Source: a virus
Lineage: Duplodnaviria; Caudoviricetes
Direction: 5' to 3' (one strand)
IMG/VR virus record: IMGVR_UViG_3300007214_000006
Length of the DNA: 64,000 bases
Positions 41,519 through 44,709 of the stretch are shown one piece after another. How positions within the stretch are numbered: position 1 is the stretch's first letter; the number at the start of each line of letters is the position of its first letter. The translations under genes and the position numbers were made by a program. The notes beneath the pieces are model-generated. The model saw only the letters and a program-made list of their open reading frames with translations, was not told where the DNA came from and did not search any database.

Positions 41519-41550
41519 CAGTCGGGGGATGCTTGTTGTGTCCCCGATTG
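41519..41550 (+). terminator. GC-rich hairpin after the primase-like gene
   Basis: CAGTCGGGGGATGC/GTGTCCCCGATTG; weak U-tract. Confidence 0.4.
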
Positions 41551-41574: not shown

Positions 41575-41847
41575 ATGGCAAGACACACAAATAAACTATT
41601 ACAGCATTTAATTGATAATGAATCTTCAAAAAGAGATTTTGTGGACTTGGTTCAAAAAACCAGCAGCAATTGGGAAATGGCTAAACTGCTAACAGAAGGT
41701 AAGTTTGAGAATACAACTTGGTATGTTAGTGGTCAAACAGTTGGCAATATCATGAAACGATTAGGATATCAAGGTAAGCGTGGACGCAAAGCCACTCGAC
41801 CAAATGTAGTTGCTAATACTGGGCTGAGATGGACAAAAAGGACTTGA
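41575..41847 (+). CDS. small basic HTH-like protein
   Basis: VSGQTVGNIMKRLGY followed by a basic tail. Confidence 0.5.
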   Translation: MARHTNKLLQHLIDNESSKRDFVDLVQKTSSNWEMAKLLTEGKFENTTWYVSGQTVGNIMKRLGYQGKRGRKATRPNVVANTGLRWTKRT

Positions 41848-42228
41848 TATAGTGAACAATCCAGACGATCCAGAATACAACGATGATCCATACAAATTCT
41901 ATTTTCAAATAGATACCGAATGGATACAAAAGTATATGGATAGTCTGATTAAAAAATTGTCAGAATCTTATCAAACTCCAGAAGGATTCAAACCGATTTC
42001 GTTACCTGTGAATAGTTGGATCTCCAGTATAGCGGGGGAGAATTCCTCCCTATACTTGGGGAACAACTATTGGAACGAGGGAGTGTGGAAAAAGAAACAT
42101 TTTATAGAGGATAAACTACAGAGGCAATATGTCAATCATTTACAAAGTCATGCTGGGTATTTTTTACACGAGCCTAGATATTATAAAGGTCTTTACGAAA
42201 TACTTAACTAGAAAGTATAAGGAATTTT

Positions 42229-42657
42229 ATGAATGAAGACAATAGTAATAGTTTTATTATAAAAGATATGATAGGATTCATAGAATCAACAAGAGCATTA
42301 GTATTCAATAGCTTTGGTAAAACAGAAAAAGATATAAAAGACGATATTAATCTTAATATAGACCCAATAGAAAAAGACGAGATAGATAAAGTTCTATCGT
42401 TCGACGAATCAGAAATAATATGTAAAGAGTTTCTAAAAAAACAAATAAACAAAAAAACAAAATCAATTAGATACATATTAACGGACGATATATTCTTATC
42501 TATAGTAGAATCTTTAAACGATAGAATGGTCAGTAATGTATTAAATAGCTTAGTCAACAAAGGTCTAGTAGAAACAGCTTATGATAGTGAATCGAACGAC
42601 TTTGTTTTTTGGGTAAAAGATAAAAATGAAAATGACCAAAAACCAGAAACCGACTGA
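42229..42657 (+). CDS. hypothetical protein with winged-helix-like C-terminus, paralog of 21585..22007
   Basis: Alignable with 21585..22007 over most of the length. Confidence 0.6.
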   Translation: MNEDNSNSFIIKDMIGFIESTRALVFNSFGKTEKDIKDDINLNIDPIEKDEIDKVLSFDESEIICKEFLKKQINKKTKSIRYILTDDIFLSIVESLNDRMVSNVLNSLVNKGLVETAYDSESNDFVFWVKDKNENDQKPETD

Positions 42658-43030
42658 CATTTCTCTTAGTCTTAAATATATTTGTCCAAATAAAAAATGT
42701 CGGTATGATCATTGGATCTCTTTAAGAGAATCCAAAATAAAAAATTTTAAAATAGTTTGTGATTGCGGCCATATATTCTGCCCAAAACCAATACAAAAGA
42801 TTTGTATAAAATATAAAAAGGAAATTAACCAGGTTCTTGAGGCCAAAAATAAAACTGTTACTGAACATATTATACCACAGGATTTATTAGAAAAATCTAG
42901 TAGAATTATGCAGACATTTGGTTTTAGAGCAAAAGAGGCTAAAGAACTTTTATCTCAATTTTATAAGACCAATCCGATTAATGATTATAAACAATTAGTA
43001 CAAAGCACTTTGGCTATTAATGGAGGTTAA
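42626..43030 (+). CDS. Zn-finger protein with RuvA domain III-like C-terminus
   Basis: CPNKKC...CDCG; SRIMQTFGFRAKEAKELL...KQLVQSTL resembles RuvA-III ALxxLGYxxxEA...LIRxAL; directly upstream of ruvB. Confidence 0.55.
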   Translation: MKMTKNQKPTDISLSLKYICPNKKCRYDHWISLRESKIKNFKIVCDCGHIFCPKPIQKICIKYKKEINQVLEAKNKTVTEHIIPQDLLEKSSRIMQTFGFRAKEAKELLSQFYKTNPINDYKQLVQSTLAINGG

Positions 43031-43031
43031 A

Positions 43032-43937
43032 ATGTCAAACTCAATGAGACCAGTATGTTTCGACGAAATCATAGGCCAGAACAGCGTTATAACTCGTTTG
43101 AGAGTCTCTGTGGCCGGTTGTAAAAACAGTGGCACGGTGATGCCTCACGTTTTAATAGATGGGCCTCCCGGCCTTGGTAAGACCACCATAGCGAGCGCTA
43201 TAGCAAATGAATTGGACGTTAACTTATATACTGTAAATGCGGCTAGCATAAGAAGCATAAAAAATATAATGCCATATATTATGGGATTATCTCCAAGATC
43301 AGTCTTATTTATCGATGAGATTCATAGGCTACCAAAAATAGTTGAAGAATTTTTGTATCCTGTTATGGAAGATTTTGCTATTAGTATAACTTCGAAGGAT
43401 GAAGAAGATAAGGATATTGTTGATCAAATAGATATTCCTTTATTTACACTAGTTGGAGCAACAACTAGTGGTGGTAGTTTAAGTCAACCATTTTATGATA
43501 GATTTACAATTAAAGAACATTTAACTTTTTATACCGACAATGATCTAGCTAAAGTAGCAAGGTTGAATTGTGACAAGTTAGGCATAGTCATAAGCGATTC
43601 AGACCTCTTTGAAATAGCAAAAAGAAGTAAAGGAACTCCAAGAATATTAAATGGTAGATTGCTTTGGTATAGAAATTATTTATCTTGCTACCCAGATTCT
43701 ACAGCATCTATTGACGAAATCTTTTCTATACAAGGTATTGACAAAAACGGATTTGATATATATGATAGAATGTACTTAGATGTTCTTAAAAAATCAAAAG
43801 GTAGTCCTCTTGGGCTAAAAAGCATATCATCAATTACAGGAATAGCAATAGAAACAATAGAGAATAGTATAGAGCCATATATGGTAAGAGCAGGCATCGT
43901 TATAAGAACATCAAAAGGAAGAATCATAAATGTTTGA
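43032..43937 (+). CDS. ruvB: Holliday junction branch-migration ATPase
   Basis: GPPGLGKTT, LFIDEIHRL, FTLVGATT, DRF, GTPR, winged-helix tail with GL...IEPY...RT.KGR. Confidence 0.93.
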   Translation: MSNSMRPVCFDEIIGQNSVITRLRVSVAGCKNSGTVMPHVLIDGPPGLGKTTIASAIANELDVNLYTVNAASIRSIKNIMPYIMGLSPRSVLFIDEIHRLPKIVEEFLYPVMEDFAISITSKDEEDKDIVDQIDIPLFTLVGATTSGGSLSQPFYDRFTIKEHLTFYTDNDLAKVARLNCDKLGIVISDSDLFEIAKRSKGTPRILNGRLLWYRNYLSCYPDSTASIDEIFSIQGIDKNGFDIYDRMYLDVLKKSKGSPLGLKSISSITGIAIETIENSIEPYMVRAGIVIRTSKGRIINV

Positions 43938-44709
43938 TATTATATTATCCACAAGAGATAATATAGAATGGATATCAATTTATTTAGATTCATACAAAAA
44001 ATATACAAAATTTATTAATAATTACAATTTAATAATTTTAGATTCTTCTATAGAAAATAATTATCTGAAATTAATAGATATTATAAAAAATTATTATGAT
44101 TTAAATATAACTGTTGTTAGATTTGATAGACATACACATTTTCATGATATATGGCTACAAGGTATAAGTTTAAGCAATAAAAGATATGTGTTAGTTACGC
44201 ATTCTGATATTGTATATTTAATGCCAAACTGGGATATTTTTTTGTTAAACAAAATACACGATGGGTACTCGCTAGTCTCTGTTTCTGTTAGAGAAAAAAT
44301 ATATCCCGAATCGGTATGGATTTGTTGTGAAAAAGAAATTTTTTTAGAATCAAAATTTGATCAATACATATACGAGGACAGGAGTATAGAACACGGAAAT
44401 ATCAAATATGTATATAATAAAAATACCACTAATAAAGAATTTTATATAAATCAATTAACAAACCTAAACAATAAATATGGGGATATAGCAATACTAGACG
44501 GTAAAGAATTTATATATCATAATTATTATTCTACTAGAATACAAAAAGATTCTTTGTGTCCAGTACCAGAAGGGGTAGAAACAATCTATCTTCATAACAG
44601 AGAGTCATTCGATAAAACAATAGAAAAAATTCGCCAATATCTTATTTTAGACAAAAACGATATATCTCTTGCAGAGTATTTATTGAATTATAATCAATTT
44701 ACCAAATAA
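43930..44709 (+). CDS. GT2-like glycosyltransferase
   Basis: LIILDSS; YVLVTHSDIVY DxD-like motif. Confidence 0.5.
   Translation: MFDIILSTRDNIEWISIYLDSYKKYTKFINNYNLIILDSSIENNYLKLIDIIKNYYDLNITVVRFDRHTHFHDIWLQGISLSNKRYVLVTHSDIVYLMPNWDIFLLNKIHDGYSLVSVSVREKIYPESVWICCEKEIFLESKFDQYIYEDRSIEHGNIKYVYNKNTTNKEFYINQLTNLNNKYGDIAILDGKEFIYHNYYSTRIQKDSLCPVPEGVETIYLHNRESFDKTIEKIRQYLILDKNDISLAEYLLNYNQFTK

Follow-up and report, generated by a model that had tools for sequence, protein, structure and literature searches.

A zinc-ribbon protein with a RuvA-domain-III-like bundle is coupled to RuvB in a large family of uncultured freshwater phages

RuvAB is the textbook branch-migration machine of bacteria, and it is the OB (oligonucleotide/oligosaccharide-binding) and HhH (helix-hairpin-helix) domains of RuvA, a tetramer, that hold the Holliday junction in its open square form. 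To our knowledge, every RuvB studied so far depends for its loading and regulation on a tetramer of three-domain RuvA, which grips the junction as well; isolated RuvA domain III is known from earlier biochemistry on laboratory fragments. In the bacterial complex, RuvA domain III (RuvA-D3) sits on helix alpha3 and the presensor-1 (PS1) hairpin of RuvB and acts as nucleotide-exchange factor and ATPase activator (PMC9477746). Here we describe gene Z, which lies directly ahead of a ruvB gene in a 64,000-nucleotide stretch of phage DNA (the whole of which we call the window; IMG/VR record IMGVR_UViG_3300007214_000006, Duplodnaviria, Caudoviricetes) and whose product joins an N-terminal zinc ribbon to a C-terminal bundle homologous to RuvA domain III. 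We consider it probable that Z is a cut-down RuvA, which has kept domain III, has had its OB and HhH domains replaced by a basic zinc ribbon, and is paired with RuvB for phage recombination. The Z-RuvB pair is a RuvAB system in new form, within a large uncultured phage family.

Compared with the bacterial RuvA-RuvB pair (1IXS/1IXR, 7PBL; PMC9477746), the phage RuvB is orthodox in having all domains and catalytic motifs, Z occupies the position immediately upstream of RuvB that ruvA has in the bacterial loci we looked at, and the bundle homologous to domain III is predicted on the same alpha3/PS1-hairpin surface. Unlike bacterial RuvA, Z has neither the OB domain I nor the HhH domain II, nor the known tetramerisation and junction-binding elements, and carries a four-cysteine ribbon instead. 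The phage RuvB also differs from its bacterial counterpart, with SGG and FY beside the arginine finger and without the ~17-residue N-terminal extension, and unlike bacterial RuvABC the system has no RuvC match in three complete relatives. As the RuvB-directed activities, nucleotide exchange and ATPase activation, reside in domain III alone (PMC9477746), Z resembles the isolated domain; unlike those fragments it is a natural protein, in which domain III is joined to an unrelated targeting domain. An altered division of labour within RuvAB has a parallel in Mycoplasma, where RuvB is reported to have helicase activity and no branch migration, and where RuvA, unlike Z, keeps the canonical three-domain architecture (PMC3364216). 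Literature searches for phage RuvB, RuvA-domain-III-like proteins and related terms returned no description of the zinc-ribbon/domain-III architecture, and the automatic JGI label of one Z family member is 'Holliday junction resolvasome RuvABC DNA-binding subunit'. Other RuvA_C-bearing architectures exist as database annotations, none with a zinc ribbon, none reported beside a phage RuvB and none studied. In the ESM Atlas, RuvA_C occurs in such unusual company as a 95-aa viral protein, HNH-RuvA_C proteins in Myxococcota and HhH-RuvA_C proteins of 110-130 aa. Domain III of RuvA may have been reused widely as a portable module for docking on RuvB.

The C-terminal bundle of Z is a remote homologue of RuvA domain III. 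We accept this homology because five independent lines of evidence agree, no single score being strong for a domain of just 50 residues. The original prediction, made from the DNA letters alone, had remarked on the resemblance, and it held in both fold and profile. AlphaFold2 (AF2) modelled the bundle as three helices at a predicted local distance difference test score (pLDDT) of ~90. Among the 73 family representatives at ≤50% identity that form our conservation set, it carries the motif (F/Y)-G-(F/Y)-x3-E, with G99 invariant and E104 97% conserved; no other bundle positions are as well conserved as this G and E, both of which belong to the motif of RuvA domain III. When the PDB was searched with family profiles, 1ixs_A, which is Thermus thermophilus RuvA domain III in a crystal structure bound to RuvB, ranked first with the whole domain matched, at E values of 0.067, 0.004 and 0.00057 for profiles of 14, 40 and 73 sequences, respectively; seven of the 11 matches in the 73-sequence search were RuvA (Thermus, Streptococcus, E. 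coli). RuvA_C was likewise the commonest Pfam family among members scanned singly (9/73, best E 0.00067). Using hhalign, we found that the Z family profile aligned with eight bacterial RuvAs, Z residues 80–132 on RuvA 147–197, at P 3.6e-5, while controls with reversed RuvA, the Z N-domain and the products of the upstream genes o119 and o142 gave P 0.31–0.86. The RuvA alignment was built from eight fragments of bacterial DNA that are catalogued as 'phage'; a homologue search from Acinetobacter RuvA gave only near-identical Acinetobacter proteins. A full-length RuvA hidden Markov model (HMM) was also run against the 3,111 open reading frames (ORFs) of 80 related loci, the best in IMG/VR, on which all locus counts rest. 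Of its 40 matches with E<1, 36 were Z homologues, matched solely via RuvA positions ~120–200, that is, domain III.

Structural comparison led to the same protein. A Foldseek search with the C-terminus, which had been proposed with the original prediction, ranked RuvA domain III first among 350,542 PDB chains (7pbl_G, template modelling (TM) score 0.79, root-mean-square deviation 1.7 Å over 49 residues), with 1ixs_A at TM 0.76 to the bundle. By VIA-align, which is independent of Foldseek, four RuvA entries led 48,161 chains at Z-scores of 6.4–6.6, followed by the next entry at 5.3 and by UBA and CUE domains at 3.6–4.4. The nearest structure clusters in the ESM Atlas (TM 0.67–0.80) consisted of bacterial RuvAs and of viral members of the family, some of which bear a RuvA_C flag. 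These lists make it very improbable that the bundle is a generic UBA-like three-helix domain without a tie to RuvB, whose likeness to RuvA domain III is convergent or due to chance. UBA and CUE domains do occur further down the structural lists, one family member is entered in UniProt as 'UBA domain-containing protein', and the window's own Z misses Pfam RuvA_C. However, RuvA domain III stands above UBA in both PDB structure searches, the Atlas list is dominated by RuvA or RuvA_C-bearing clusters with no UBA clusters shown, and searches with the sequence profile retrieve RuvA but no UBA proteins; only one of 40 members touched a UBA Pfam model. The conserved G/E motif, the strict linkage to RuvB and the negative hhalign and complex controls also argue against a generic bundle.

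The remainder of RuvA has no recognisable counterpart in Z. For domain I (OB fold, RuvA_N), neither Z nor its neighbour genes matched RuvA HMM positions 1–120, and hhalign found no likeness between the Z N-domain and RuvA (P 0.82); domain II (two HhH motifs, HHH_5) was not matched in the Pfam scans of the 73 members or in the RuvA HMM search. The original prediction had proposed that a zinc finger replaces the junction-binding domains, and a zinc ribbon was indeed modelled in their stead. The AF2 model of Z (mean pLDDT 86.6, 40-sequence alignment) consists of a small beta-rich zinc ribbon at residues ~14–62, a disordered linker at ~63–83 (pLDDT ~51–75) and helices at 85–97, 102–115 and 121–132. 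The residues that separate ribbon from bundle are thus disordered in the model, and across the family the linker ranges from 7 to 60 residues. Folded alone, the ribbon reached pLDDT 89–95. Its four cysteines, Cys20, Cys25, Cys45 and Cys47, which were seen at the outset as a 4-Cys N-terminus, are invariant in the 73 representatives, and Tyr18, His29 and Trp30 are nearly so; the C-terminal text then quoted is also present. The ribbon carries a net charge of +10 in this Z and +5 on average in the family, and the bundle is roughly neutral. A fold search with the ribbon alone gave weak, generic zinc-ribbon matches (best ZitP, Z-score 3.2, and LysW, 3.0), its top match in the AlphaFold database (AFDB) was a Z family member, and single-sequence Pfam and PHROGs scans of Z returned nothing useful. 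The ribbon's partner would most likely be phage DNA, in the form of branched recombination or replication intermediates; a protein partner such as the winged-helix o142 is possible. As a separate matter, we considered a 'split RuvA', with o119 and o142 as diverged RuvA domains I–II, which was unsupported by hhalign (P 0.51 and 0.86).

The motor itself is orthodox. RuvB matched the Pfam families RuvB_N, AAA_lid_4 and RuvB_C (E 1.8e-45, 1.1e-7 and 1.4e-17; 155, 32 and 63.8 bits, exceeding the respective cut-offs of 27, 27 and 24.7), and its top PDB match was E. coli RuvB, aligned end to end (1.3e-64). In 26 family members GPPGLGKTT (48–56), FIDEIHR (97–103), T149, R161, R208 and E117/D118 are invariant (305-aa numbering, used throughout). 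From our reading of the alignment, we take these to be Walker A (48–56), Walker B (97–103), sensor-1 (T149), sensor-2 (R208) and the trans-acting pair (E117/D118), and R161, which aligns with E. coli R174, to be the arginine finger. With all catalytic motifs kept, the phage RuvB appears to be catalytically intact. The substitutions singled out in the original prediction, SGG for RAG and FYDRF for LRDRF, were borne out by alignment with E. coli RuvB and are fixed across the family, S150, G151, G152, F158, Y159, D160 and R161 being invariant or nearly so. The domain-I beta-hairpin, described there as retained, corresponds to the PS1 hairpin and is kept in 26/26 family RuvBs, with a tip of varying length. 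I137, P140 and F142 of the hairpin and R78, K81 and Y86 of the alpha3 region are invariant.

We modelled RuvB residues 1–172 together with Z residues 80–134. As the original prediction had supposed, an interface between the bundle and the RuvB hairpin was predicted, with an interface score (ipSAE) of 0.76–0.77 in three runs versus 0.00, 0.00 and, for the best control, 0.09. The runs had ≥94% of contacts in common and a partner pLDDT of 88–89. In the calibration of the complex predictor, the mark was reached by 58/80 solved complexes and 2/110 mismatched pairs, counts that hold only roughly for Z-RuvB, for which own alignments were used. The confidently predicted contacts on RuvB (Y70, S79–K81, M84–Y86, M88–G89, I123–K126, D135 and I137) form a helix, alpha3, and both strands of the PS1 hairpin, with D135 and I137 aligning with E. 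coli I148 and I150. Those on Z comprise K90, R93, I94, T97–F100 and Y121–G133, and the F-G-F motif within T97–F100 aligns with RuvA L-G-Y. Because the contacts fall on the published RuvA-D3 surface (PMC9477746), the predicted interface is the canonical RuvA-D3 site, and domain III of Z would most likely dock on the hydrophobic surface that alpha3 and the PS1 hairpin present.

Linkage of the two genes is strict. In the related phages, whose synteny the original prediction had suggested inspecting, a RuvB homologue lies directly 3' of Z in 78/78 loci with downstream DNA, starting −41 to +5 nt from the Z end, and the Z-RuvB arrangement is repeated in independent contigs from ENA and Logan. Since identity to the window copies is 67–87% for RuvB versus 35–65% for Z, the adaptor evolves faster than the motor. 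This rapid evolution would also suit a Z that is aimed at the host, as a decoy or hijacker whose domain III sits on host RuvB and either blocks RuvAB or recruits the motor, the phage ruvB being an incidental or secondary target. Consistent with such a role, RuvA-D3/RuvB contacts tolerate cross-species pairing (hetero-complementation cited in PMC9477746), and Bacillus phage Kirov has an annotated RuvA C-terminal-domain protein, in a paper whose text makes no mention of RuvB (PMC10454425). We nonetheless regard this role as improbable: Z never occurs alone in the 78 loci, the placing of the ruvB ribosome-binding site in the last Z codons speaks for cognate partners made in matched amounts, and Z modelled with the phage RuvB reaches a high score.

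The Z family is large, diverse and almost wholly viral. Relatives numbered 14 in a 5.8-billion-protein index and 126 in IMG/VR, and an exhaustive profile search gave at least 476 clusters at 50% identity (E ≤0.001), with 126 clusters at ≤1e-30. The 150 family matches listed are mostly of 120–185 aa and whole-length, a few being shorter and apparently partial. Among 50,697 deposited phage records, Z had no tblastn match, 20 kb of the window had no megablast match, and the closest RuvB match was <40% identical. The sole Z match in 185,579 species genomes was on a 1.1-kb contig of a Lake Lanier alphaproteobacterial metagenome-assembled genome (RFNS01000222.1), which is probably a mis-binned phage fragment and at most a faint hint of the host, too little for host assignment. 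Read sets carrying the family come from freshwater, lake and reservoir metagenomes, all DNA and in small shares. Related contigs measure 150–225 kb, and the clade that carries the pair is one of freshwater phages of 180–225 kb. Since nearly all full-length RuvB matches in the phage collection lie in apparent fragments of bacterial chromosomes, true phage RuvBs appear to be rare among deposited genomes. GenBank 'phage' records with ruvA-ruvB (L086, CAKLQF020000007.1, and L088–L095) look like bacterial chromosome fragments; 'Acinetobacter phage MD-2021a', for example, has purL, dgt, ruvA, ruvB and tolQ in a row.

Canonical partners of RuvB were sought in the window and in relatives. As the original prediction had indicated, the window holds no ruvA: on its six-frame translation the RuvA HMM matched Z only, weakly and via the domain III part. 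A full ruvA was found neither in the related loci, where ~1 Mb of flanks around Z homologues gave no match to RuvA domains I–II, nor in three complete relatives (G001–G003; 224, 223 and 178 kb, CheckV 100% complete), which served as proxies for the source genome. In these relatives RuvA_N, RuvA_C and RuvC had no match at E up to 1, the RuvC search having been aimed at the relatives only; the same searches were positive in 10–12 control bacteria, and RuvB_N, as a positive control, was found exactly once in each relative. All three carry a RecA/UvsX-like gene. Two of them (G001 and G002; L081 and L082) also have an endonuclease VII-like gene, with open frames of 125 and 134 aa, which is absent from the third. 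These endonuclease VII-like genes could be junction resolvases or homing-type nucleases. The clade is thus equipped with a recombinase and, in many cases, with a candidate enzyme for cutting junctions, but without a canonical RuvA. Single queries with T4 UvsW and T4 gp23 had no match in the relatives, a result that is uninformative for want of a positive control and given the distance from T4; PF11637 is UvsW.1, not UvsW.

Coordinates of the locus are collected in Table 1. The original prediction had placed the GGAGG Shine-Dalgarno of ruvB within the last codons of Z, and this is confirmed by the Z 3' end, which reads AAT GGA GGT TAA (43019–43030, with the TAA stop at 43028–43030). An ATG at 43032 follows GGAGG with a 5-nt spacer and the Z gene with a 1-nt gap. 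We take it to be probably the true ruvB start: family RuvBs open with 'MS..IRP', which would put the listed start at 43020 four codons too far upstream. On the letters, the Z-ruvB junction reads as classic translational coupling.

Table 1. Features of the Z-ruvB locus, with positions counted in the window
Feature	Position	Strand	Remarks
o119, first gene of the four-gene block	41852..42211	+	no recognisable fold or family
o142, upstream neighbour	42229..42657	+	overlaps Z start by 32 nt; C-terminal half winged-helix-like
Gene Z ('mini-RuvA' zinc-ribbon / RuvA-domain-III-like adaptor)	42626..43030	+	ORF, 134 aa
Z N-terminal 4-Cys zinc ribbon	42665..42811	+	residues ~14-62
Z cysteines	Cys20 42683-85, Cys25 42698-700, Cys45 42758-60, Cys47 42764-66	+	invariant
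Z disordered linker	42812..42874	+	residues 63-83; variable length
Z RuvA-domain-III-like three-helix bundle	42875..43021	+	residues 84-132
GGAGG Shine-Dalgarno for ruvB	43022..43026	+	within Z codons 133-134, read from sequence
Phage ruvB	43032..43937	+	301 aa from likely start; ORF list: 43020, 305 aa
RuvB helix alpha3 region	43245..43289	+	residues 76-90 (305-aa numbering); part of predicted Z-docking surface
RuvB presensor-1 beta-hairpin	43374..43445	+	residues 119-142
RuvB sensor-1 to arginine-finger stretch GATTSGGSLSQPFYDRF	43455..43505	+	SGG + FY substitutions; R161 kept

Two small genes stand ahead of the pair. o142 lies upstream of Z in 80/80 loci, its end always overlapping the Z start, o119 lies ahead of o142 in 78/80, and the order o119-o142-Z-RuvB recurs in the independent ENA and Logan contigs. 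In Pfam, o142 matched winged-helix families with its C-terminal half (DsrD and HTH_56 in 6/27 members each, and also Cdc6_C, the APAF-1 winged-helix domain (WHD) and MarR_2), and the structure neighbours of o142 in the Atlas are MarR-like. o119 had no Pfam or PDB match, and PDB profile searches with o119 and o142 gave nothing significant. The o119 product has an acidic N-terminus and an invariant C-terminal ILN, with no relatives detected outside this phage clade. The plus strand from o119 to the end of ruvB holds no terminator-like site, the scan counts not exceeding those of shuffled controls, a weak hint that o119 to ruvB may be one transcription unit. A terminator-like hairpin (41525–41545) follows the primase-like gene upstream, and a TG-extended promoter-like site (41824–41853) lies just ahead of o119.

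This conserved order suggests a refinement of the cut-down RuvA reading that differs only in what the ribbon touches: Z would bridge a larger o119-o142-Z-RuvB assembly, its ribbon binding o142, a DNA binder perhaps acting with o119, so that RuvB is sent to o142-marked sites rather than to junctions in themselves. We hold this tentatively and think it rather unlikely. The constant presence and overlap of o142, the repetition of the gene order in ENA and Logan contigs, the recurrent winged-helix matches and MarR-like structures of o142, and the o119-ruvB stretch free of plus-strand terminator-like sites are all in its favour. Yet neither o119 nor o142 resembles RuvA domains I–II, a ribbon so basic would be just as well suited to contact DNA directly, and the region from rIIA to RuvB is syntenic as a whole, which makes co-occurrence unspecific. 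The upstream flank holds rIIA, rIIB and an optional primase-like gene; the downstream genes vary. A bolder version, which we advance as a speculation with the odds against it, is that o119-o142-Z-RuvB is a phage-specific DNA-remodelling machine, in which domain III is a portable handle and the ribbon, perhaps via o142, directs the hexamer to a substrate other than a Holliday junction held by RuvA. Candidate substrates are stalled or reversed forks, the D-loops of recombination-dependent replication, and particular sites in the genome.

The two ends of the locus have features of their own. In the 32-nt o142/Z overlap (42626–42657), present in 80/80 loci, the two frames encode conserved peptide motifs, ...QKPETD* at the o142 tail and ..KNQKPTD.. 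at the Z N-terminus. One motif may simply be carried along by the other, or the constraint may lie on the nucleotide sequence, for example for coupling. At the other end, a family-2 glycosyltransferase gene (43930–44709) overlaps the end of ruvB by 8 nt and follows RuvB in just 2/80 loci. The region 3' of ruvB is variable in the clade, with thioredoxin, Volactin-family actin-like or trypsin-like genes in relatives L101–L103.

Taking Z as a cut-down RuvA, a mechanism can be outlined, the first two steps of which we draw from sequence, structure and modelling. Z and RuvB would be made together by translational coupling. Domain III of Z, bound to alpha3 and the PS1 hairpin, would then promote nucleotide exchange and ATP hydrolysis by RuvB, by analogy with RuvA-D3. 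Finally, the flexible linker and the basic ribbon may hold the motor to DNA, directly or by way of a partner bound there, and the ribbon could send RuvB to another substrate. We infer from this that, in a phage without a RuvA or RuvC of its own, the pair would serve recombination-dependent replication by migrating branches or remodelling forks. In current models RuvB pulls the DNA relative to a RuvA core that is held in place (PMC9477746), which makes it a real question how a motor with a monomer-sized adaptor gains purchase on DNA.

Several points weigh against this interpretation. Solved RuvA-D3/RuvB complexes may have been memorised by the complex predictor, so that a pass speaks for likeness and not for binding. 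The window's own Z has no Pfam RuvA_C match and the homology is visible with profiles only; three-helix UBA-like bundles are common, and a structural Z-score of ~6.5 is modest for a 50-residue domain. Fold searches gave no informative structural relative of the zinc ribbon, which leaves its ligand a guess. The stretch from rIIA to RuvB is syntenic throughout, so that adjacency is partly general synteny and co-occurrence alone is therefore no proof of a four-part machine. The search of the source phage for a canonical ruvA spans the 64-kb window of a 222-kb contig. None of the sequencing runs found with the locus was an RNA run.

What the pair offers is, in the first place, a division that nature itself has made. 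Since this viral family keeps the docking domain of RuvA and swaps the part that holds DNA, the two jobs of RuvA, the switching of the motor and the choice of substrate, are separated. It provides a simple system in which to study the effect of domain III by itself on a RuvB hexamer, and the action of a RuvB that has no RuvA core to brace against; the current lever model relies on that tether. The o119-o142 block is the obvious place to seek the ribbon's partner. If the remodelling-machine idea is true, RuvB would be retargetable, as adaptor-driven AAA+ unfoldases are. For the freshwater phage clade itself, the finding adds to the recombination toolkit a motor-adaptor pair without a close counterpart in deposited phage records.

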